Shown one piece after another: positions 5,688 through 38,746 of a DNA stretch of 38,746 bases. The stretch spans positions 1 to 38,746 of IMG/VR virus record IMGVR_UViG_2648501400_000020; one strand, 5' to 3'. The notes beneath the pieces were generated by a model. The model did no database searches, was not told the DNA's origin, and saw only the letters and a program-made list of their open reading frames with translations. Each line of letters starts with the position of its first letter. Within the stretch, counting starts at the first letter, position 1. This DNA is from a virus. Its lineage: Duplodnaviria; Heunggongvirae; Uroviricota; Caudoviricetes. The translations under genes were made by a program, and so were the position numbers.

Positions 5688-6271
5688 CCGCCCCCCAGTA
5701 ATGACGCCACGTTACCCGTGATGCTTTTCAGCAGTGAAGTATCTGGAGGCTTTGTGGTTTTGTTGCCGCTGTTCTGTACCGCCGACGTGCTGGCCCCTTC
5801 CTTCATGTTGGTTTTATCAGCGACAGTGATCTGCTGTGTCCGGGAGATAAGGACCTCCCTCAGGGTGAGGACGGCGGACAGGACGTTTTCGGTTGTCTTG
5901 TCCGTCGTCACTTCCAGCGCCCGGATCAACATGTTGCTGTACAGCCGTTTACCGGTTACCACATCGAAGGGGATACGGCTTTCCTGCAGATCCAGTAGCT
6001 CCTGATACGTCTGCTGAGGACTCAGGCCGAGCAGGCCGGTAGCCGTCAGGTTACTGGCAAAATCCAGCAATGCGCCGCCACCGGCGAAACCAACCTCCAT
6101 CACCACTTCTGACGGTTTTTTATAGGCATGATCAGCGACAGCAGCCCCGACCTCTACCGGATGCTCTGTTATTTCAAGCATATCTGTATGCTTCTCTGAA
6201 ATAACAACACTGGGAACAATCATTCCTATTTTTCTGCTCTGCTGATGAAAAAGTGTAGAGAGAATATCCAC
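5684..6271 (-). CDS. Tail-associated hypothetical protein
   Basis: 195 aa ORF immediately downstream of tape measure gene. Confidence 0.35.
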   Translation of the reverse strand: MDILSTLFHQQSRKIGMIVPSVVISEKHTDMLEITEHPVEVGAAVADHAYKKPSEVVMEVGFAGGGALLDFASNLTATGLLGLSPQQTYQELLDLQESRIPFDVVTGKRLYSNMLIRALEVTTDKTTENVLSAVLTLREVLISRTQQITVADKTNMKEGASTSAVQNSGNKTTKPPDTSLLKSITGNVASLLGGG

Positions 6272-8280
6272 TAACCCACCCTCACCTGATTACTTCGCAT
6301 GACCTGAGCATTTGCAGACTGTTGCCGACGTGCAACCTCATTACCGACAGCGTGCGGATCTCCGCCACCGTAAATGTGGTAAGTATTTTGCTGATTAACC
6401 TCTGTCATTTTGCCACTAATTCCCGCCACGGCAGCCTTATTAATCAGCCCTCGGGAATAGATATTTCTTCCATTTTCATGCTGGATAATGCTGCTCATCA
6501 ATGCTGACATGGTTTGCGGATCGCTCATATTCAGGGCAGCCCGGGGATCCACTCCCAGTCGTTGCGATACAGCCCTGATATACGCAGTTGTGTTGTTATT
6601 ATCAGACGCAGGTGCCCAGGTAGAGATAATTTTCTCCACACTGTTTATTCCCCGTCCGGCGTACAGCATTAACTGACGAGCAAGAGCCCGTAATCCATCA
6701 AAAGCAGTTTCAAATCTGGCAAATCGCCCGCCCGGGCGTTCAAGAGAAGCCCCTGCCTGACCAGCAAAATTAAGGTTTCCCGGATTGTTATTCCGTTCTC
6801 CTCGTTTCGTAGCCTGTGCATGTTGTTCCGGCTCATCATCACCAAACCAGCCGCGTACCGTCCGGCCCACACTGCGGGGATCGAATCCCCAGTGCTCTTT
6901 AATCCAGTCGGCAGTACTGTTAGCGCTGTCTGTAACCATCGGCATCGCTGACGGATTTTCGCTGCCCTGATTAAGTATCTGTTTGCCGATGCTGACGGCA
7001 TCAGCCCAGCGGCCATCTTTGATAGCGTTGAGCAGGTCAGCGATCATGTTCAGCATTTTGCTGAATTCGCCCATCTGGTCGATGAAGTTGCTGAAATCCC
7101 ACTTCAGGGACCATGATTTGGGGTCAATATTGAGCAGTTTCGCCAGCGCTTTCACCAGGTCGTTAACGGTCGTTTTAAGGTCACGAACCATCTTCAGCGC
7201 GGCATCGACCTCCGGTTTCCACTTGCCCCAGTCAATCAGGCTGTCGCCGCCTTCCTTCCAGGTCTGATAGTCCTCCCACAGGAGGGCAATACCCGCCGCC
7301 AGCGCGGTAATGAGGCCAATCGGCGACATCCAGAACGTACTGTTCAGAATGCGCAGCGCAATCGTCAGTGCGCCAAACAGCGAGATCAACTCCCGCGTTT
7401 GCTTATCCAGCGATTGCCACCAGGTGATAAGGCCTGATGTCCCCTCAATCAGTCTGAAGAACAGCCGCCCGATAATATCCCCGAGCGCCAGAATGCCTTT
7501 TATGGCTTTCGTCAGGGTCTGCTCGATACGAGGGAAGTTGTCCAGGATATGGCGGCGCAGGGTGTCCAGCGAACCCGCAAGCCCCCCCGCAAGATTAGAG
7601 CCGATTTTGTCACGGGCCATGCCTGCCATCGCGCCAAACTCACGCAGGGAGGTCATAAATTTGTTGGAGCTTCTGGCCGCCTCGTCAGCATTGAAGCCGA
7701 TAGCTTTCGCCATTGCGCTGTACTGCCCGGAGAAGCCACCCACACCCCGGCGCATAGCCATCAGGGTATTTTCGTCAATGCCCAGCATCTGCGCATACTG
7801 GTTAGCCCGGTAATACGGCATGCTGCTGAGTTTCTGTCCAACGCCCGTAAAGATAGCGGCCATGTCACGCATGTTACCGCTGGCATCACGGGTCTGTACG
7901 CCCAGGCGATTCAGAAAGCCTTCTGCTCCGGGATTATTACGAATAAACCGGGAGAGGTTTTCCAGAGAAGATCGCGCAGCGTCCACGCTGCCGCCAACCT
8001 GCGAAACCGCATAGCCAATAGACTGAATTCCCTGGACTGTCGCGCCAGTGCGCTGTGACGCCCAGTAAAGATTATCCAGACCAGAGGCGATCTTAGCCGT
8101 GAAGGCCACCACGGACAGCGCAGCTCCTTCGACGGCCAGCCCCATTTTGATGACATTTGCAGTTGTACCGGCGAGGACAGAACCGAATTTTTTCGCTCCT
8201 GCATCATCCACACTGAAGCCAAGCGAGACGAGGAAATCTTTAATAGTCTCGGCGTTCATTATCCTCTCTCCATTTCTCAA
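6271..8280 (-). CDS. Tail tape measure protein with distinct C-terminal globular domain
   Basis: 669 aa; Ala/Gly/Leu-rich helical core with hydrophobic segment WMSPIGLITALAAGIALLW; sits after tail tube/chaperone genes. Confidence 0.75.
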   Translation of the reverse strand: MRNGERIMNAETIKDFLVSLGFSVDDAGAKKFGSVLAGTTANVIKMGLAVEGAALSVVAFTAKIASGLDNLYWASQRTGATVQGIQSIGYAVSQVGGSVDAARSSLENLSRFIRNNPGAEGFLNRLGVQTRDASGNMRDMAAIFTGVGQKLSSMPYYRANQYAQMLGIDENTLMAMRRGVGGFSGQYSAMAKAIGFNADEAARSSNKFMTSLREFGAMAGMARDKIGSNLAGGLAGSLDTLRRHILDNFPRIEQTLTKAIKGILALGDIIGRLFFRLIEGTSGLITWWQSLDKQTRELISLFGALTIALRILNSTFWMSPIGLITALAAGIALLWEDYQTWKEGGDSLIDWGKWKPEVDAALKMVRDLKTTVNDLVKALAKLLNIDPKSWSLKWDFSNFIDQMGEFSKMLNMIADLLNAIKDGRWADAVSIGKQILNQGSENPSAMPMVTDSANSTADWIKEHWGFDPRSVGRTVRGWFGDDEPEQHAQATKRGERNNNPGNLNFAGQAGASLERPGGRFARFETAFDGLRALARQLMLYAGRGINSVEKIISTWAPASDNNNTTAYIRAVSQRLGVDPRAALNMSDPQTMSALMSSIIQHENGRNIYSRGLINKAAVAGISGKMTEVNQQNTYHIYGGGDPHAVGNEVARRQQSANAQVMRSNQVRVG

Positions 8281-8436: not shown

Positions 8437-8889
8437 TCAGCCCTGTTGCAGGCTCTGCGTCGTGCTGGTAAGGGGTGTAGGCAAAAAATTTCCCAGCGAA
8501 TCGGCGACCACCCGCGCCACCAGCTGCAGCATGACCAGCAGGTCAATATCATCAAACATCAGTTCGCCCTGGGTAAATACCGGCACCCATCCGTCCATAT
8601 GACGCCGCGATACCACCGCAAGACAGGGATGAATAATCGCATCGGTGTCATCTTCGGTCAGGGAAGACAGTTCCTCAGCGATACGCGGGAGCATGGTTTC
8701 AAACACCGGTTTTAACTGCTCGAATTTCACGGTGTCGATTTTGCCGTCAGCAGGCAAACGGGAGCGAATGCTCCCGAAATCTGACATCATTCCTGCCAGC
8801 ACCGGCAGAAGTTTGCGGGTCACTTTCAGCTGGTCAAAAACGCTGAGTTTTGCCACGCGATATTTCACGCCTTTGATTTCGAATTCCAT
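8437..8889 (-). CDS. Tail assembly chaperone
   Basis: 150 aa acidic protein between tail tube and tape measure genes. Confidence 0.45.
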   Translation of the reverse strand: MEFEIKGVKYRVAKLSVFDQLKVTRKLLPVLAGMMSDFGSIRSRLPADGKIDTVKFEQLKPVFETMLPRIAEELSSLTEDDTDAIIHPCLAVVSRRHMDGWVPVFTQGELMFDDIDLLVMLQLVARVVADSLGNFLPTPLTSTTQSLQQG

Positions 8890-9343: not shown

Positions 9344-10489
9344 TTAGCGAACAACGTTAATCTGTACGTCAGCGTAATGAACCGCGCCTGCAAGTTTTAT
9401 TGCAGCCTGAATCACCGGAGCCTTACGGGCTTCACGCTCTGATTGTGCCTGTTCATCCAGCGGCTGGGCGTATACGTAATAACCTTTGGGCAGCGTGTCA
9501 CCTGATGACAACTGACCAAGGTCGCCCCCGTTCCATACGCCCGGAGCAATCAGTCCATTCTGAACGGCCTGATCCAGTGATTTTTCAACATTTGATAACA
9601 GTCGGGTAATACCGGCTTCAGTCTGGGGAACTTTCGTGGTGCTGGTATAAAGCAGGTTATAGAGGTTGGTCTGCACATAATTCTGTAACCAGTCCAGGCC
9701 GTGGCGTTCATCAAAGAAATCGCCGTTAGCCATCACTCCCTGCTGGAGGATAGCCGTATCATTCTGGTAGTACACGAATACATTGCATTTTTTTGCATCA
9801 AGTGCCGATGCCTGGCTGACTGTCAGTGTTTCATACCCGACCCCCGGCTCCTGCTTAAACTTGAGCGTAATCGCGGTATTACTGCCATTGAAATTAACCG
9901 TGAATGCCCGGCCAAATGCAGATAACGCAGCGTATTTATTACCCGATGAATACTGAATAAAACTGCGTGAATATCCGGCGGTTTTCAGTTTTGATGCCAA
10001 ATCATCGCTGGATGCAGTCTGCAGGCATTTCTCATCGCTTGTCGTAATCGCCAGAATACGGCTTACAGAAGAGGATTCGATCGCCGCAGCCACTTTCAGC
10101 CAGTCTGCATCCGGAATATCTTCATCGTCTGCAATCCCCAGCCCATACCATGAAGTATAATCGAGCATGGCATTCACAGCCTGTTCCAGCGTCTCAGGCG
10201 TGGCCTGTTCGCTGTCTCCCTTCGTTTTCACCCAACGACCAACAAAAACCTCCTGAGGTTTCGGTGATTGTGAGAAAAACACCTGCGCAGCCTTATATTC
10301 TGGTGATTCCACGCCAAAATCTTTTCCAATATCTTCCGCGGCAGAATAACGGCGAATGCGCTCACTTACCGGAATGATTGTGGACGGGCCGAGAATGAGT
10401 AATGCACCAAAATTTCGCCCTGATGCTGCACGCGGCGACATGATCACATCAACATTAACAACGTTTGATACAGGCAAGCCCTGTGCCAT
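9344..10489 (-). CDS. Contractile tail sheath protein
   Basis: 381 aa ORF preceding tube gene; sheath-tube-chaperone-tape measure order. Confidence 0.65.
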
Positions 10490-21641: not shown

Positions 21642-22223
21642 TTAAAGCTGCATCAACCTTTCCACCAGTTTATCTCTGCGAACAACAAACCAACCATTGG
21701 CTCTCGCCAGTTCCAGCCATGACTCAAGGGAAATAACAATATCATCATCCCGTAACTGAATTGTGGAAACAGTGACACCGCCTCGCTGATAACAGAGAAC
21801 TCGCGTGTCGTAACTTTTCTGGCATGAAACTGGCGCTGACGGATCCTTTTGTCTGAAATAGCAGTCTTCCAGCTTTTCGAACACATCCCACGCCTGATCG
21901 GTTTCGAGCATTTTGGCATGACGGGCTGCTCCGCGTTCTGTCCAGAGGATGAGGGAGCGGGCTTTCGGGGAAATTTGTAACCCTCTTAAAGATGGTTGCA
22001 AATTTTGTGAGTAGTTTAAAGCTACCCGCAAATTTTTCAGGGCATCGCCAGCCACTTTGAAAAAATGCTTTCCTTCAATAAAGCGCTCAGCATTTCTGGC
22101 GTAGTTATTTTGAATGTTCTTAACTTCAGCACCGTACAACTGCGCCAAAAGTTCGGTGGTAATAACAGGAATCTGGTTATGGGTGATCGGGGAGAGAGTT
22201 TCAACAGAAATTTGAGTTGTCAT
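21642..22223 (-). CDS. ORF6N-domain protein (Rha/antirepressor-like regulator) inserted between Q and lysis genes
   Basis: N-terminal segment VITTELLAQLYGAEVKNIQNNYARNAERFIEGKHFFKV resembles the ORF6N/KilA-N-type DNA-binding domain of phage antirepressors. Confidence 0.5.
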   Translation of the reverse strand: MTTQISVETLSPITHNQIPVITTELLAQLYGAEVKNIQNNYARNAERFIEGKHFFKVAGDALKNLRVALNYSQNLQPSLRGLQISPKARSLILWTERGAARHAKMLETDQAWDVFEKLEDCYFRQKDPSAPVSCQKSYDTRVLCYQRGGVTVSTIQLRDDDIVISLESWLELARANGWFVVRRDKLVERLMQL

Positions 22224-22496
22224 AATGACGCCCTCTGGTGGTTTCTAAACCATCACCACCGTCAGGTTCCTAATCATCGGGTGGTGAGACGTACAGGGTT
22301 AGGAACTACCGGGAAACCAACCGGCGAGCTTTTCAGCTCCCCCATACGCCCCACCATAATTCAGATGTGCGCGTGCATACGACAATAAAAAACACGCTCG
22401 CGGCGTGTGTCTGTCGCGGTCTCTATCCGGGGTTCCTAATCCCGACGCCAGATTTTGCTGGCGCGTGAGGAATATAGCCCCGGATAACAGATTGAG

Positions 22497-24495: not shown

Positions 24496-24651
24496 TTACT
24501 TCTCAGATTCGTAGGCTACGAAGACAGCGACCTCCATCTGGCCGGTTCGGATTCGTACCTCGCAGAGGTCTTTCCTCGTTACCAGTGCCGTCACTATGAC
24601 GGTTAAACAGATGGCGATCAGGGCGATTAACATCGCCTTTTGCTGCTTCAT
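24496..24651 (-). CDS. hok: Hok/Gef-family type I toxin (51 aa); below the ORF-track length cutoff
   Basis: My translation: MKQQKAMLIALIAICLTVIVTALVTRKDLCEVRIRTGQMEVAVFVAYESEK; AAGGAG Shine-Dalgarno; short upstream ORF ends overlapping the start codon. Confidence 0.85.
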   Translation of the reverse strand: MKQQKAMLIALIAICLTVIVTALVTRKDLCEVRIRTGQMEVAVFVAYESEK

Positions 24652-24909
24652 AGCCTGCTTCTCCTTGACCTTTCGGTCCGTAAGAGGCTAATCTCTATGT
24701 GTCGCATAGATATGGCCTCAGATTAATGTTAAGCGTCTTGCCGGACGCGTAATGTTAACTGGGGCTTTTCTCTATCTGCCTTTTGGTGTTCATGCCTGAG
24801 ACAGATAGCCTCAAGCACCCACAGTCATTCTACTTAACTAAGATTTCCCTGCAAACCGTTTTTGTCCGGCACAGTAAATATCCAACTAAACCAATAGCGT
24901 TCGCTGTAT

Positions 24910-30703: not shown

Positions 30704-31111
30704 ACCATTTATTGGATTAATTCAATATTCTTGCTGTAGGGGTATAGCCGAGGCCACCAAAGCCCGGAGGTGGTGAAATAAAACCGGGCACAACACGAAG
30801 GCGCATTTCCGGTATCCATAAAGAGTCGGTCTTGTCTGTTAAATTTAAATGGTGGGAGTGCGCCTCCGGTTGTAAATAACGACATTGCTATGTGTAGTCT
30901 TTGGCGGCATCAGTTCTACTCCGTGGCTGCCCTGCCGCCCCTTTTTAAAGTGAATTTTGTGATGCGGTGAATGCGGCTAAGCGCACGCGGCACAGTTAAA
31001 AGCATCAGTGTTATGGGTGGATTATCCGGCGTTAATTGTTAACTGGTTAACGTCACCTGGAGGCACCAGGCACCGCATCGACAAAATTCATTTGTAAAAA
31101 TGGAGATAATT

Positions 31112-31951: not shown

Positions 31952-34900
31952 ATGAGCACCGATAAACAAGTTTACCCACTGTATTACGAAGCAAAAAATG
32001 ACAAAGTAAGAAAACGTCTCGGTATTAAAGGCGGTTTCTACTGGGCTGAAGCGAAAAAATTATCCATTGCCATCTCCCGTGGTGCTGTTGCGATTGACGA
32101 TGCTGGCTACGATGAAGATGACTTTAAAAAACCTGTTCGCGTCAACTTGCCCGTTGTTGATGACCTTCCACCAGAAGGCGTATTTGATACGGAATTCTGC
32201 AACCGTTACGAAAAAGGCGGGGAAGATGGCATCACAATGGTATTTATCGCGCCCTCATCCTCTGCGCAGGACAAACCAGCCAGCACTGACAATACCAATG
32301 TTAATGGCGAAGACATGACGGAGATTGAGGAGAATATGCTACTCCCGATTTCCGGTCAGGAGCTGCCCATTCGCTGGCTTGCTCAACACGGCAGCGAAAA
32401 ACCGGTAACGCACGTTTCACGCGACGGACTACAGGCATTACACATTGCACGAGCTGAAGAACTACCAGCTGTTACTGCCCTGGCTGTTTCCCACAAAACC
32501 AGCCTGCTCGACCCGTTGGAAATTCGCGATCTCCACAAACTGGTGCGTGATACTGACAGAGTTTTCCCTAATCCAGGCAATTCAAGCCTGGGGCTGATGA
32601 CTGCTTTTTTCGAAGCATACCTGGACGCAGACTACACCGATCGCGGTCTGCTGACAAAAGAGTGGATGAAAGGAAATCGTGTTTCACGCATCACGCGCAC
32701 GGCTTCCGGCGCTAATGCTGGCGGCGGGAACCTCACCGATCGCGGCGAAGGTTTCGTTCACGATCTGACGTCACTGGCGCGCGACGTAGCCACTGGCGTA
32801 CTGGCTCGTTCAATGGACGTGGACATTTATAACCTTCATCCGGCACACGCTAAACGTGTCGAGGAAATTATCGCTGAAAATAAACCGCCCTTTTCTGTTT
32901 TCCGCGACAAATTCATCACCATGCCTGGCGGGCTGGATTATTCCCGCGCCATCGTGGTTGCGTCCGTAAAAGAAGCACCAATTGGGATCGAGGTTATCCC
33001 CGCACACGTCACTGAATATCTTAACAAAGTACTGACTGAAACTGATCATGCCACCCCTGATCCAGAAATCGTGGATATTGCCTGCGGTCGTTCCTCTGCC
33101 CCGATGCCGCAGCGTGTAACAGAAGAAGAAAAACAGGATGATGAAGAAAAACTGCAACCATCTTGCGCAATGGCAGATGAACAGGCAACGGCTGAAACAG
33201 TGGAACCGGATGCAACTGAACATCATCAGGACACGCAGCCGCTGGATGCTCAGTCACAGGTAAATTCTGTTGATGCGAAATATCAGAAACTGCGGGCAGA
33301 ACTCTATGAAGCCCGGAAAAACATTCCGCCCAAAAATCCTGTCGATGCAGACAAATTACTGGCTGCCTCTCGCGGAGAATTTGTTGAAGGGATTAGCGAC
33401 CCGAATGATCCGAAATGGGTTAAGGGGATCCAGACCCGCGATTCTGTGTACCAGAATCAGCCAGAAACGGAACAGAACGACCCAAATACGCAACAAAACG
33501 AGCCAGAAACGAAACAGCCTGAGCCAGTAGTGCAACAACAGGAAACGGAGAAAGTTTGCACCGCCTGCGGTAAGGCTGGCGGCGGCAACTGTCCTGACTG
33601 TGGCGCGGTGATGGGCGACGCAACGTATCAGAAAACCTTTAATGAAGAAAATCAGAATGAATATCAGGAAAAAGGTCTGGAGGAAATGGAAGGTGCTGAA
33701 CATCCGCACAAGGAGAACGCTGGCAGCAATCCGCATTGCGATTGCAGTGATGAAGCTGGTGAAACGACAGCACCTGTAGTAACTGAAATCATGTGGCCGT
33801 CATATTTCGAGCCTGGCCGCTATGAAAACCTCCCGAACGAGGTTTATCACTCCGCCAACGGAATAAGCAGCACAATGCTGAAGGATGCCCGCATCAGCCT
33901 GATGTATTACCACGGACGGCACATTGCCGGAACTATTCCGGGCGAGGAAAGTGATGCATTGCTGCGTGGGCGGATTATTCACAGCTATGTTCTGGAAACG
34001 GATAAATTCGCTGATGAGTATGCCATCCCGGTACCGGTTCCTGAATATGTGGTTACTACTTCTAACGAACTGATCGCCATCATTAAAAAACACAATGCCA
34101 GTCTGCCAGCACTGATGACACCAGAGCAGATGAAAGAGTGGATCGAAAGCTACAACAGCACTCTTATACAGCCACTGTCGGTAAGTGCCGGGGCCGAAGA
34201 AACAGGCATCCTTTACGGTTCGCTTCCGGAGGAATTCCGGCGTATTCCTGAGGGGGAAAAACACACAGCATCAGCAATGAAAGCCTGTATTAAAGAATAC
34301 AACGCAAGCCTCCCTCCTCTGCTGAAAGCCAGTGGAACACGAGAGCAGCTCCTGGAGCAAATTGAAACTGTAGATCCAGAACTGGCAAAAAAAGAACGTG
34401 CTAAATCTTTGCCTTACAACATCAGAGGCACAAAAGAGCAATTAACCGAAATCGCCCGGAAAATTCGCCCGGAACTGGTAACACTGGAGGACTGGCAAAA
34501 ACGCCAGCAAGAAGAAAACGCCGGGAAAACGTTTATCAGTCCGGATATGTATGAACAGGCAAAAAATATTCACGCAGCACTGCAAAACAATACTGATGCA
34601 GCAAGGCTACTCAACCACCCGGATCGCAAATCTGAAATCAGCTATTTCGGGTTTGATGAAGAAACCGGGCTGGAAATCAGGGTCCGTCCTGATATCGAAA
34701 TCCGGCTGCCATACGAAAGCATTTGCGCCGACGTGAAGTCAGTCAGCCTCGGTTATGTGCGACAGGAACGACTGAAAGATCGCCTGCACCGTGAAATTAT
34801 TGAACGTGATTATCACCTCAGCGCAGCAATGTATTGCGATGTGGCAAACCTGGACAAATTTTTCTGGATCTTCGTCAACAAAGATGCTGGCTATCACTGG

Positions 34901-35080
34901 GTGGCCGTCGTGGAAGCCTCGCAGGAACTCCTGGAACTTGGTCGACAGGAATATCGCCGGACACTACGACAGATAAACGAAGCTCTGGAGACAAACAACT
35001 GGCCAGCACCGATTACCGAAAGTTATACCGACGAATTAAACGACTTTGATCTTCGTCGTCTTGAAGCACTGAGCATCTGA
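31952..35080 (+). CDS. recE: RecE-like exonuclease VIII (PD-(D/E)XK nuclease C-terminal domain)
   Basis: 1042 aa; C-terminal RVRPD...CADVKSV...YHLSAAMY motif set (D at 34691); position upstream of annealing protein and int; internal CxxC-N9-CxxC at 33557-33601. Confidence 0.7.
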
Positions 35081-35091
35081 GGAAGGACACA

Positions 35092-36144
35092 ATGAACGAA
35101 TTAACTCAACAAGAAAATATTAACTCTAATGTTGCGGTTTTCAGCCCTCAGTCCCTGGCTGCAATTCAGACATTTTCCCAGGTAATGGCTTCCGGCATGG
35201 CTACTGTACCGGAACACCTCCGGGGAAATCCATCAGACTGCATGGCCATCACCATGCAGGCGATGCAGTGGCAAATGAACCCTTACGCAGTAGCTCAGAA
35301 AACTTTCGTTGTGAATGGTATGCTCGGATATGAAGCGCAACTGGTTAATGCCGTAATCAGTACTCGTGGGCCGCTAACCGGGCGTATTGAATATGACTGG
35401 TTCGGGCCGTGGGAAAAAATTATCGGGAAATTTGAAATCAGGAAGAACGACAAGGGGAAAGAATATCGTGTACCTAGCTGGAAGCTGGCCGATGAAAACG
35501 GGATCGGAGTTCGCGTCCAGGCAACACTACGCGGAGAGAGCAAGCCACGCGTACTGGAGTTACTTCTGGCACAGGCCAGAACACGTAACTCAACGTTATG
35601 GGCCGATGATCCTCGCCAGCAGCTTGCCTATCTGGCACTGAAACGCTGGGCGCGCCTTTATTGCCCTGAAGTGATTCTTGGAGTGTACACCCGGGACGAA
35701 CTGGACGAACCACAGGAAAAAATCATTAATCCGGTTCAGGAACATAAAAATACATCCGCCTGCCGTGCGGAACGTGAAACAACAATTATTGAGCAGGATG
35801 CCGGGGAAAACTGGATCAGTGCTTTCCGTGAACGTATTGAGCAGGCACAAAGCACCGGAGAAACAACATCACTTCGCCAGGAAGTGGAAGATCATAAAAA
35901 TACACTTGGCGCTCTCTACACAGAACTTAAAGGAAAAGTGGTTCAGCGTCATCACCGTCTCAATGCTATTGCCCGTATTGAGACGATGATAAATGACCTG
36001 CCTTCATCAGGTGATCCAGAAGCAGAACAAAAATTTATTGCTCTGGAAAATACGCTGAATGCTGCACGACCACATCTGGGAGAATTATATGAGGCGTATA
36101 AAACGACACTGACAGATATGAAACCAGAATATATCGGCTCCTGA
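35092..36144 (+). CDS. Putative single-strand annealing/recombination protein (RecT/Bet position), family not recognised
   Basis: 350 aa, GAGG Shine-Dalgarno, 11 nt downstream of RecE-like stop; assignment by synteny. Confidence 0.4.
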   Translation: MNELTQQENINSNVAVFSPQSLAAIQTFSQVMASGMATVPEHLRGNPSDCMAITMQAMQWQMNPYAVAQKTFVVNGMLGYEAQLVNAVISTRGPLTGRIEYDWFGPWEKIIGKFEIRKNDKGKEYRVPSWKLADENGIGVRVQATLRGESKPRVLELLLAQARTRNSTLWADDPRQQLAYLALKRWARLYCPEVILGVYTRDELDEPQEKIINPVQEHKNTSACRAERETTIIEQDAGENWISAFRERIEQAQSTGETTSLRQEVEDHKNTLGALYTELKGKVVQRHHRLNAIARIETMINDLPSSGDPEAEQKFIALENTLNAARPHLGELYEAYKTTLTDMKPEYIGS

Positions 36145-36207: not shown

Positions 36208-36402
36208 ATGCGGTATGAAAAAGTCAAACCATGTCCGTTTTGTGGTTGTCCATCAGTAACGGTGAAAGCCATTTCAGGATATTACCGCGCAAAGTGTAAC
36301 GGATGCGAATCCCGAACCGGCTATAGTGGAAGTGAAAAAGAAGCACTCGAAAGATGGAATAAACGAACTACTGGAAATAATAATGGAGGTGTTCATGTAT
36401 AA
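36208..36402 (+). CDS. Lar-like restriction alleviation protein (zinc finger)
   Basis: 64 aa from ATG 36208; CPFCGC...CNGC motif typical of the Lar family. Confidence 0.5.
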   Translation: MRYEKVKPCPFCGCPSVTVKAISGYYRAKCNGCESRTGYSGSEKEALERWNKRTTGNNNGGVHV

Positions 36403-36583
36403 AATTACTGCCACTATTGAAAAGGAAGGTGGCACTCCTACTAACTGGACAAGATATTCAAAATCTAAATTAACGAAATCAGAATGCGAAAAAATGCTCT
36501 CAGGGAAAAAAGAAGCAGGCGTTTCCAGAGAGCAGAAAGTAAAGCTGATAAATTTTAATTGCGAGAAACTTCTGTCCTCGTGA
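36395..36583 (+). CDS. Small hypothetical protein (YdaC-like position)
   Basis: 62 aa from ATG 36395 with GGAGG Shine-Dalgarno; overlaps end of Lar-like gene. Confidence 0.3.
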   Translation: MYKITATIEKEGGTPTNWTRYSKSKLTKSECEKMLSGKKEAGVSREQKVKLINFNCEKLLSS

Positions 36584-36689
36584 GTTGCATTATATACAAA
36601 TTAGAACTTCATAGCTGATTATTAAAAATCAACCACATCCGCCAGTATTCTGTATATTTACTGGCGGTCATATCGTAAGAGGTATGGCA

Positions 36690-36971
36690 ATGAATCTTGT
36701 GACACTCAAAACGTGGGGAAAACTCAGATATCCGGATAACCCACCATCAATATCAACGCTGAGACGATGGGCAAGGAATGGAAACATTTATCCTGCACCT
36801 GAACTACACGGGAGGAGTTACAGGGTGGTTCCGGAGGCTTTCTATATCAACCCAAATAAGGTTGATACCGATATAACACACCATCAGCCTAATGGGCGAC
36901 AAGGGAGAGACAGTCCGTTACTGGAGAAGTTAAAACATGCAGCGGAAAAAATACGATCCCAATTTGCCTAA
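36690..36971 (+). CDS. xis: Excisionase (lambda Xis-like)
   Basis: TLRRWARNGNIYPAPELHGRSYRV resembles the lambda Xis winged-helix core; overlaps int start as in lambda. Confidence 0.6.
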   Translation: MNLVTLKTWGKLRYPDNPPSISTLRRWARNGNIYPAPELHGRSYRVVPEAFYINPNKVDTDITHHQPNGRQGRDSPLLEKLKHAAEKIRSQFA

Positions 36972-38013
36972 AAACTTAACATATCGAAGGAGGGACAAAG
37001 CATATTACTGGCGCAACCCTCTGACGAAAGAAGAATTTACACTAGGTAAAATTTCAAGAAGAGATGCAGTAGCGCAGGCAATTGAAGCAAATCATTATAT
37101 ATACAAAAACTACTCTCCTGCTGCCTTAATTGAAAAGCTTAAAGGGTTCGACTCATTTACTATGGCAGACTGGATTGAACGTTACAAAACGATTCTTATA
37201 AGGAGAAAAGTGTCCAGAAATACTTATAAAATTCGGGTAAATCAACTGGAGACAATAAAAGAAAAATTGGGGGAAATTTTACTGACAGAAATAACCACTC
37301 GCCATATTGCCGAGTTTCTTGATTTGTGGATTGAAGGAGGGAAAAACACAATGGCAGGATCAATGCGTTCTGTGTTGTCTGATATGTTTCGTGAGGCCAT
37401 TGTTGAAGGACGTATATCTCAAAATCCAGTAACGCCAACAAGAGCACCGAAAATAGTAGTTACAAGAGAACGACTGAAACTAAAGACATACAACTGCATC
37501 AGGGAGGCAGCAGATCAACTTCCGGCATGGTTCCCATTAGCTATGGATTTAGCCCTTGTAACAGGACAACGTCGCGAAGACATAACGAATATACGGTTTA
37601 GTGATATTTATGATGATCGTCTCCACATCAGGCAAATTAAGACAGGAATGATGATTGCTATCCCCCTGTCACTCAGCCTTCCTGTCGCTGGTCTACGGCT
37701 TGGTACAGTAGTTGAACAGTGCCGCCTGGTAAGCCGGGGAGATTATCTAATCAGTGCCGGGATTAGAAAAAACAGCCCTGACGGCAGCATTCACCCGGAT
37801 GGCCTGACAAAAAAATTTGTCGCAGCCAGAAAATTAACAGGTATCCAGTTCAGTGAAAACCCACCAACTTTTCACGAGATCAGAAGTCTGGCTGGACGAT
37901 TGTACAAAGAAACATGTGGAGAAGAATTTGCTCAGCGTCTACTTGGCCACACATCGGAGAAGACAACAAAAATGTATCTTGATGAGAGAGAAAAAACGTA
38001 CTTACTGCTCTGA
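36937..38013 (+). CDS. int: Tyrosine integrase, lambda Int family
   Basis: 358 aa; N-terminal arm-binding region ([29 protein letters not shown]) and C-terminal catalytic region ([13 protein letters not shown]...[13 protein letters not shown]) parallel lambda Int. Confidence 0.9.
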
Positions 38014-38060
38014 TTTTAACGTAAATGGATTGTTAAATGTATTTTGGTTGTGATATAACC

Positions 38061-38078
38061 AAAAAAGACCGGAATACA
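38061..38078. repeat. att-like core repeat AAAAAAGACCGGAATACA, degenerate copy of the sRNA 3-prime end at 38145-38163
   Basis: Direct imperfect repeat read from sequence, 84 bp apart, just downstream of int. Confidence 0.3.
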
Positions 38079-38144
38079 GAAATTCGAGTAAATTTCGGGG
38101 AATTTCGGGAAGACGTTTGCAACTGATTGATTTTAAATACAATT

Positions 38145-38247
38145 AAAAAAAGACCGAATACGATTCCTGTATTCGGTCCAGGGAAATGGCTCTTGGGAGA
38201 GAGCCGTGCGCTAAAAGTTGGCATTAATGCAGGCTTAGTTGCCTTGC
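38145..38247 (-). ncRNA. sdsR: SdsR (RyeB)-like small RNA with intrinsic terminator
   Basis: Minus-strand transcript beginning GCAAGGCAACUAAGCCUGCAUUAAUGCC and ending in hairpin GACCGAAUACAGGAAUCGUAUUCGGUC plus U-run; lies between a yebY-like gene and the prophage as in the enterobacterial ryeA/ryeB locus. Confidence 0.5.
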
Positions 38248-38334
38248 TCTTTAAGAATAGATGACGACGCCAGGTTTTCCAGTTTGCGTGCAAAATGGTC
38301 AATAAAAAGCGTGGGGGTCATCAGCTTAAATGTT

Positions 38335-38378
38335 AAAAACCGCCCGTTCTGGTGAAAGAACTGAGGCGGTTTTTTATT
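38335..38378. terminator. Bidirectional rho-independent terminator between sRNA region and yebY-like gene
   Basis: accgcc...ggcggt extended hairpin with A-run upstream and T-run downstream on the plus strand. Confidence 0.6.
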
Positions 38379-38404
38379 GGAAATCAAAAGGCTATTTTAG
38401 GTAA

Positions 38405-38746
38405 TTAACAGAGTTTTTCAGCTCGCTCTATAAACGGTGCCAGACTCATTTTTTCGCCGGGATTGTTAGGATCATCAATCTGAATCACCGAAATGAGTTG
38501 GGCTTTAGTCTTCCCACTGGCAACTTCCTTTTGTGCGATATCGTTTAAAGGATACTGCACGAGGGTACTTGGGTTGATGACATACAAAGCATTACCTGGT
38601 CGGCAAGCCAGCATCACCTCTTCGCGATTAAACGCCCATTTGTCTTTACCCACTTCAAAACGGCTGACGGTAATCACCTGCGGTGCCGCCAGCGCAGCTG
38701 CAGAACTGGTGAGTAACAGAAACGCCAGAATACTTTTTTTCATCAT
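38405..38746 (-). CDS. Host-type secreted protein with signal peptide (YebY-like)
   Basis: 113 aa, N-terminal [20 protein letters not shown] signal peptide; lies outside the prophage beyond the sRNA locus. Confidence 0.5.

Follow-up and report, generated by a model that had tools for sequence, protein, structure and literature searches.

The region at 38014-38380 of the window (the whole 38,746-nt stretch of viral DNA that was analyzed) is best read as the attR site of a temperate myovirus that carries a lambda-type integrase and an excisionase and is inserted into the Rho-independent terminator of sdsR (ryeB), an sRNA gene of the host chromosome. We put the probability of this reading at about 0.88. 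The principle of such an insertion has been known since 2008 in Salmonella, and the gain is incremental; what is added here is an E. coli/Shigella member with its frequency, the crossover interval, the architecture of attP, and the recognition of a second core-like copy in the phage arm as a conserved phage element.

Attachment junction at the sdsR terminator

The features at the right end of the window that define the junction are as follows.

36684-36971, plus strand: xis, the excisionase gene, overlapping the start of int (Pfam PF07825 Exc, E 6.5e-14)
36937-38013, plus strand: int, a lambda-type tyrosine integrase of 358 aa with an arm-binding N-domain (Pfam PF00589, PF22022, and PF09003)
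38014-38143, no strand assigned: P′ arm of attP, derived from the phage and forming the phage side of attR (absent from empty sites; contiguous with the core in free phage attP)
38144-38378, plus strand: RyeA/SraC body, its own promoter and first ~56-62 nt missing (Rfam, K-12 comparison)
38145-38161, no strand assigned: phage C half-site and A-tract, supplying the SdsR 3′ stem arm and U7 tail
38145-38247, minus strand: SdsR/RyeB sRNA gene, with ~80 chromosomal nt at the 5′ end and ~23 nt from the phage at the 3′ end (Rfam, fold, terminator, K-12 annotation)
38160-38170, no strand assigned: crossover interval ACGATTCCTGT at the center of the terminator dyad (comparison of four att forms)
38335-38374 with a T-tract to 38378, plus strand: RyeA terminator hairpin (inverted repeat)
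38405-38746, minus strand: yebY, the chromosomal flank gene (Pfam DUF2511, E 1.9e-44)

SdsR is a conserved, sigmaS-dependent, Hfq-binding sRNA that targets porins, tolC, and mutS and, with RyeA, forms a toxin-antitoxin-like pair. In the window, the minus-strand unit matches the Rfam family SdsR_RyeB (RF00111) with 118.1 bits at 38244..38145, covering the full model (positions 1-100), for which the gathering score is 38 bits, and transfer of the K-12 annotation places sdsR at 38145-38248. On the plus strand, SraC_RyeA (RF00101) matches 38141..38285 with 180 bits. The minus-strand RNA has a fold z-score of -4.1 and ends in a terminator with an 11-bp stem, a 7-nt loop, and U7. An extended -10 element of the sigmaS type, TCTATTCTTAA (minus strand; 38251-38261 in plus-strand numbering), stands 7 nt upstream of the start, and this -10 region is identical to that of K-12, where the sdsR promoter and start have been mapped and are sigmaS-dependent (PMC6610125; PMC3333887). 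The promoter in the window is predicted to be of the same sigmaS type. Moreover, the location is conserved, with the adjoining gene annotated as yebY in all matching genomes, RyeA on the opposite strand, and pphA beyond the prophage in the complete lysogen.

To place the junction, a probe running from the end of int through yebY was compared with 5426 complete E. coli genomes. Chromosomal homology was found in all 5426, from 38144 rightwards, and the int side was also matched in just 228 of them; the segment 38014-38143 is missing from empty chromosomal sites. With the empty-site probe, the locus was intact in 5189 genomes and split in the other 237, so that ~4% of the complete genomes are occupied at this site, 228 of them by the junction seen in the window. 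The attL probe matched exactly 228 genomes, equal to the count for the attR form. Since attL is outside the window, which ends ~2.4 kb short of the attL position in the closest complete lysogen, the attL evidence comes from relatives that are 97-99% identical.

The four attachment forms were then aligned. attB, as found in clone D i2 and K-12, reads AAAAAGAGACCGAACACGATTCCTGTATTCGGTCC, in the empty-site stretch ...ACAGATAAAAAGAGACCGAACACGATTCCTGTATTCGGTCCAGGG. attL consists of the bacterial left half followed by GTTTTCGTCAAC, and in FDAARGOS_1287, the closest complete lysogen, it reads ...AAAAAGAGACCGAACACGATTCCTGTtTTCG-TCAACAAAC. The attR of the window consists of the phage left half followed by GTATTCGGTCC, its full stretch being CAATTAAAAAAAGACCGAATACGATTCCTGTATTCGGTCCAGGG. 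attP, as present in the free or circular phage records pPE4, L037, L076, and Salmonella ZC-S1_prp, consists of the phage left half followed by GTTTTCG..; in the free phage PP818812.1 (pPE4; Int 97.5% identical) it reads ...CAATTAAAAAAAGACCGAATACGATTCCTGTTTTCGTCAACAAAC. The sole stretch identical in attB, attP, attL, and attR is ACGATTCCTGT (38160-38170, 11 bp), with diagnostic mismatches on both sides. The mismatches to its left are phage-type in attR and bacterial-type in attL, while those to its right show the reverse. Because the mismatch types swap on either side, the crossover falls within this 11-bp interval.

The interval coincides with the loop region of the SdsR terminator and forms the center of the inverted repeat GACCGAATAC / GTATTCGGTC, whose 10-bp inverted arms flank a 7-bp loop. 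The stem arms GACCGAAYAC and GTATTCGGTC probably represent the inverted core-type half-sites B and B′, and the hairpin loop GATTCCT (38162-38168) is the putative 7-bp overlap, the sequence itself limiting the exchange to the 11-bp interval. Integration is a site-specific recombination, with strand exchange probably in or beside the 7-nt loop GATTCCT. The phage C half-site and its A-tract (38145-38161) take the place of the last ~23 nt of SdsR and restore the hairpin. This element differs from attB at two positions (A for G and T for C), both phage-type in attR and bacterial-type in attL, and the exchanged segment, 38146-38168, lies inside the last ~23 bp of ryeB. The rebuilt hairpin has equal predicted stability and an unbroken U7 tail: the predicted energy is -15.3 kcal/mol in the lysogen and in the empty site alike, and the tail is U7 versus UCU5. 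We also considered that the phage copy strengthens the terminator stem by placing U-A for U.G, and rejected this since the energy stays at the same -15.3 kcal/mol and only the U-tract differs. At attL, fold prediction indicates that the hairpin does not re-form.

Variant rebuilt terminators were seen in the attR cores of four further loci (L004, L005, L009, and L060), which carry GAACCGAACACG, GACCGAGTACG, and GTTTTCGGTCC; the Shigella flexneri variant among them has GACC-AACATG with GTATTGGGTCC. As judged from their sequences, several of these variant cores would weaken the SdsR terminator stem.

Part of what the sequence-only reading had proposed for this locus is borne out by these comparisons. 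It had described an SdsR-like unit on the minus strand at 38145..38247 with a sigmaS-style -10 element and a terminator, a prophage in the 3′ end of that gene whose att core reconstitutes the terminator, and a matching core to be sought at the other prophage end; each of these is what we found. Its description of the ryeA/ryeB locus as a hotspot for acquired DNA agrees with the published record, in which the locus is an integration hotspot (Balbontin 2008, as cited in PMC7380047 and PMC3333887). Its interpretation of the repeat nearer to int is treated below.

Organization of the P′ arm and the second core-like copy

The window Int scores 60.7 bits for PF00589, 41.2 for PF22022, and 28.1 for PF09003 (cut-off 22). 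Residues 8-353 match the lambda Int structures 1Z1B, 1Z1G, and 5J0N (E 7.6e-72), and identity with HK022 Int is ~40-41%. A search with Int yielded 3 loci in genome contigs, and 80 viral contigs were kept from the viral collection; the P′ arm alignment comprises 24 int-downstream regions, including lineages whose Int is 69-74% identical. The P′ arm of the window contains the following features.

38030-38059, plus strand: conserved blocks TTGTTAAAT and TTGTGATATAAC, candidate promoter or protein-binding sites (87% and 91% conserved versus 50-55% in the flanks)
38061-38079, plus strand: second copy AAAAAAGACCGGAATACAG, resembling the phage C half-site and its A-tract
38080-38109, plus strand: three tandem arm-type repeats (putative) AAATTCGAG, AAATTTCGGG, and AATTTCGGG, ~11 bp each and spaced 10-11 bp
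38116-38143, plus strand: sigma70-like pair TTTGCA-16-TACAAT, adjacent to the junction and directed into the RyeA body (9/12 matches)
38120-38132, minus strand: IHF-like site (putative) CAACTGATTGATT, minus-strand WATCAANNNNTTR, between the arm repeats and the core (sequence reading)

Outward from the core, the arm holds the IHF-like match, the three repeats, the block AAAAAGACCG(G)AATACAG, and then the blocks TTGTGATATAAC and TTGTTAAAT, within an attP that spans ~270 bp. In four attP sequences, arm-type repeats occur as a set of three at -79, -69, and -59 and, on the P-arm side, as a pair at +146 and +157. Within a given phage, the three units of the triple set have the same variable 3′ portion, which differs from phage to phage (GAGG x3, GGAC x3, GGAA x3), and the TAAC-N4-TTGATT pattern of the IHF-like site is partly conserved in the P′ arm alignment. 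The triple repeat appears analogous to lambda P′1-P′3 and would provide Int arm sites; both this assignment and that of the IHF-like site are putative and draw on sequence pattern, spacing, and analogy with lambda. By the same analogy, the arrangement of P′ arm, core, and P arm corresponds to the lambda plan P1-P2 / core / H′ / P′1-P′3. The core 11-mer ATTCCTGTATT recurs in the P arm of some relatives (L002 ~8835-8850; L037, ~+187 from the core). It was rejected as a P-arm element and is probably incidental, being missing from pPE4, L076, and ZC-S1_prp.

The sequence-only reading had reported an imperfect repeat of the core 84 bp closer to int. The repeat is real (38061-38079), and the offset is 85 bp rather than 84: AAAAAAGACCG occurs exactly at 38061-38071 and 38146-38156, and beyond it the match carries on with two indels (GACCGGAATACAG versus GACCGAATACG). 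A 17-mer search with up to 3 mismatches found no second core within the window; such a mismatch-only search misses the second copy because the copy differs by indels. Of 1000 dinucleotide-shuffled sequences, 1 had an exact recurrence of at least 11 nt within 150 nt, and the repeat is not a chance match because it is also conserved across diverged phages. Among 69 distinct segments downstream of int, nearly all keep the copy at an unchanged spacing, even where the adjoining Int is ~70% identical, and its position and spacing are constant in the E. coli, Shigella, Salmonella, and Entomohabitans loci. Measured against divergent lineages, conservation amounts to 87% for the second copy and 87-91% for the other two blocks, compared with 43-55% for the spacers and 69% for the end of int. 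Since the copy reaches 87% against 43-55% for the spacers, it is under constraint.

In the intact attP sites of pPE4, L037, L076, and the circular Salmonella record ZC-S1_prp, the core directly adjoins the entire segment 38014-38143, which contains the second copy. Because the interval is in free phage attP and missing from empty sites, it is phage DNA. The second copy (AAAAAGACCGGAATACAG) is therefore a conserved attP element that the phage carries, and not a junction or a scar in the chromosome. It is located beyond the outermost arm repeat, and the role that we prefer for it, from its resemblance to the C half-site, is that of a putative accessory binding site. To our knowledge, lambda attP has no core-like half-site outside P′3, and hence there is no direct precedent for this role.

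The copy has been explained differently. The sequence-only reading suggested that it marks the real phage/chromosome junction, the ~65-bp interval then being the leftover of an earlier insertion at the same hotspot. A tandem or decayed insertion would be expected to produce a direct repeat of the att core, and repeated use of the site with remnants has been reported in Salmonella (PMC3333887; PMC7380047). However, such a leftover should be chromosomal, and homology in all 5426 genomes begins at 38144, to the right of the interval. The presence of interval and copy together in the attP of free and circular phage records speaks equally against it, as do the arm-type repeats and the IHF-like site, which give the interval the lambda-like P′ organization expected for such an Int. 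In addition, AGAAATT, which stands beside the copy at the position of the overlap, is unlike GATTCCT. On these grounds, the proposed junction and remnant are refuted for this chromosome, and we consider a decayed insertion extremely improbable.

A relic of another kind would be a non-functional old duplication or capture of the sdsR 3′ end, arising for example by aberrant excision or by recombination in a tandem lysogen. The A-tract has been copied along with the half-site, which gives the copy the appearance of a duplicated SdsR 3′ end rather than of motif convergence alone. Moreover, one contig has lost the interval via recombination between the copies, which indicates that a prophage can survive without it. 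In this contig (IMGVR_UViG_2728369554_000022, represented by loci L029 and L088; junction at L088 8539-8571), an 86-bp deletion runs exactly between both AAAAAAGACCG repeats and eliminates the IHF-like site along with the complete set of three P′ arm-type repeats, so that this prophage is probably excision-defective. Yet the deletion form occurs just once in the 80 viral contigs retained after searching with Int, with no other exact match in the whole viral collection, and as a common route of prophage fixation it was rejected on account of this one contig. A decaying relic is also at odds with a copy that has held at 87% beside spacers at 43-55% and an Int at ~70%, and with its constant placement in the loci named above. 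We accordingly regard a relic as improbable, although less so than a decayed insertion, and retain the accessory binding site as the preferred reading of the second copy.

Consequences for the antisense pair and candidate promoters

In K-12, ryeA is 272 nt long and starts 38 nt beyond the sdsR 3′ end (L087 1067), with TGtTATGGT upstream; the RyeA start has been mapped (PMC6610125). The counterpart of this start region in the window (38107-38143) is phage DNA, and RyeA is not intact here. The native ryeA promoter is found at attL in lysogens. Because the overlap corresponds to RyeA +56 to +62, attL, beside pphA, retains the sigma70 ryeA promoter together with nt 1 to ~60 of RyeA. With the RyeA promoter and 5′ end displaced, the antisense pair is physically rewired, and at attR phage DNA precedes the RyeA body.

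The prophage also places ~44-45 kb between sdsR and pphA, as measured in the closest complete lysogen. In K-12, pphA is transcribed mainly via read-through from the sdsR promoter (PMC6610125). In the lysogen, pphA would be severed from that promoter, and read-through from sdsR would instead enter the P′ arm antisense to int. From this arrangement of the sequence, the RNA levels of SdsR, RyeA, and pphA may change in the lysogen, and results obtained in K-12 on the regulation of these three genes may not transfer to lysogens. At the attL of one lysogen (NZ_CP070071.1; L002 8168-9843), the phage invertase gene pinE was observed upstream of and co-directional with pphA. As no terminator hairpin re-forms between pinE and pphA, pphA might receive read-through from phage transcription in lysogens.

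The phage DNA that now heads the RyeA body contains promoter-like sequences. The conserved blocks at 38030-38059 read TTGTTA (-35-like), 18 nt, and TGaTATAAC (extended -10-like), and a promoter-like pair is present at the same aligned position in 22/22 P′ arms; on the minus strand of these 22 arms, no recurring promoter-like pair was found. It has to be weighed whether the second copy is the start of a transcript rather than a binding site. The blocks would then drive a plus-strand RNA with its 5′ end at the second copy and its 3′ end at the RyeA terminator, that is, a substitute, 5′-modified RyeA of ~310 nt that runs through the P′ arm and the core and is antisense to all of SdsR. The uniform occurrence of the pair on one strand is in favor of this, as are the 87-91% conservation of the blocks, their constant spacing, and the lack of a plus-strand terminator between int and the RyeA body; a start ~7 nt downstream of the hexamer would land on the second copy. 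Against it, the last base of the -10 hexamer is C, G, or A where the consensus has a highly conserved T, the -35 element is weak (ATGTTA in most lineages), and the 38030-38059 pair was uncalled by a standard promoter scan. Conserved blocks at fixed spacing fit protein-binding sites equally well. Activity of this candidate promoter is thus a prediction from sequence that we consider doubtful, although it is the least improbable of the alternatives to an accessory binding site.

A more far-reaching version, which we hold to be unlikely and to a greater degree than the promoter itself, is that the P′ arm promoter at 38030-38059 starts a chimeric, phage-headed RyeA at the second copy, whereby the phage would set the level of the SdsR antagonist, cut pphA off from sigmaS read-through, and send that read-through antisense into int. 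If this were true, the chimeric RyeA would hold two stretches complementary to the SdsR 3′ arm and U-tail, one from the second copy and one from the core, and lysogeny would couple the stationary-phase sRNA circuit of the host to the stability of the prophage. The accessory binding site remains our preferred reading of the second copy.

Two further candidates in the P′ arm were set aside. The pair TTTGCA-16-TACAAT was rejected as a conserved substitute promoter, since it is present in the close lineage only and sites of this type are no more numerous in the region than in shuffles. Similarly, the minus strand of the P′ arm is unsupported as a back-up sdsR terminator, with a weak fold z-score of -1.0 and no terminator called by the scan.

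Phage relatives and comparison with known systems

Several observations concern the phage and its relatives. A contractile-tail body is encoded in the window (sheath 9344-10489, tape measure 6271-8280). Just upstream of xis, the RalA antitoxin sRNA (Rfam 223.8 bits) is found at 36401-36579 on the minus strand, opposite a ralR-like ORF at 36326-36583 on the plus strand, and a recE-like gene (31952-35080) and recT (35092-36144) adjoin this locus, giving a Rac-like early region. Matches to C4 antisense RNA and an IsrK-like RNA lie at 22277-22477 on the minus strand with a1/b1 target sites, directly upstream of an anti-repressor gene (21642-22223); by its sequence, this region appears to be a P1/P7-type immI-like module. 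A sok antitoxin RNA of a hok/sok-type locus (106.7 bits) was detected at 24649-24820 on the minus strand, and a prophage-borne DicF sRNA (60.9 bits) at 30889-30940 on the plus strand.

The record PP818812.1 (L003, 44000-47508) is named 'Actinobacillus phage vB_Apl-pPE4', and its attP core is the enterobacterial sdsR terminator. Judging from this sequence, the stated host Actinobacillus pleuropneumoniae looks doubtful; a literature search on phage pPE4 returned nothing relevant. In another locus, L046, an Int that is 98% identical stands beside an SdsR gene with a non-E. coli downstream flank, beginning at +70 after the core, and by sequence the same phage lineage seems to use the site in another enterobacterial genus. 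The family represents a well-sampled natural series of lambda-type attP sites with concerted repeat evolution and an extra core-like element outside the canonical arm, and the series could inform on how Int families are retargeted and how intasomes are assembled.

The closest known case is the Salmonella phage PhiW104, whose integration into the last 23 bp of ryeB is reported to decrease ryeA and increase ryeB (Balbontin 2008, J Bacteriol 190:4075, as cited in PMC7380047). In the window phage, the displaced RyeA promoter and the lengthened U-tract would offer a structural basis for such a shift. As far as that account describes it, PhiW104 and the window phage share an att site in the last ~23 bp of ryeB/sdsR that is internal to ryeA, and in both, phage DNA provides a new 3′ end for the sRNA and takes the place of the 5′ portion of ryeA. 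Unlike PhiW104, the phage studied here has E. coli/Shigella as host and is a myovirus with a Rac-like early region. The Salmonella record ZC-S1_prp, with an Int that is 73% identical, has the same attP layout as the window phage; the window Int is ~70-74% identical to the divergent lineages found, this record included.

In Yersinia enterocolitica, the prophage vB_Yen_24-YE00064 is reported to have a 27-bp att and to be integrated with an integrase gene on one side and a YebY-family gene on the other (PMC12653942). The neighborhood is the same and the core length similar, as compared by description only, and the authors of that study draw no link to an sRNA. This prophage may be a further case of integration at the sdsR site.

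With lambda and HK022, the window phage shares an Int with arm-binding, core-binding, and catalytic domains (~40% identical), a xis gene upstream of int, an int that reads towards attP, and, by the putative assignments above, three P′ repeats, two P-arm repeats, and an IHF-like site between the core and the P′ repeats. In contrast to lambda, whose attB is the gal-bio intergenic site, attB here is an sRNA terminator hairpin, and the putative core half-sites form a 10-bp perfect inverted repeat. The P′ arm is, moreover, ~50 bp longer than that of lambda and holds three extra conserved blocks, one of which is the core-like half-site copy.

Finally, the window phage resembles phages that integrate at the 3′ ends of tRNA and tmRNA genes, in that both have a core extending over the 3′ stem-loop of a gene for a structured RNA, and in both the gene is made whole again by the copy that the phage brings. 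Unlike those cases, the target here is a sigmaS-dependent, Hfq-binding sRNA with an overlapping antisense partner. Integration restores the sense RNA, but it deprives RyeA of its promoter and would deprive pphA of read-through transcription.
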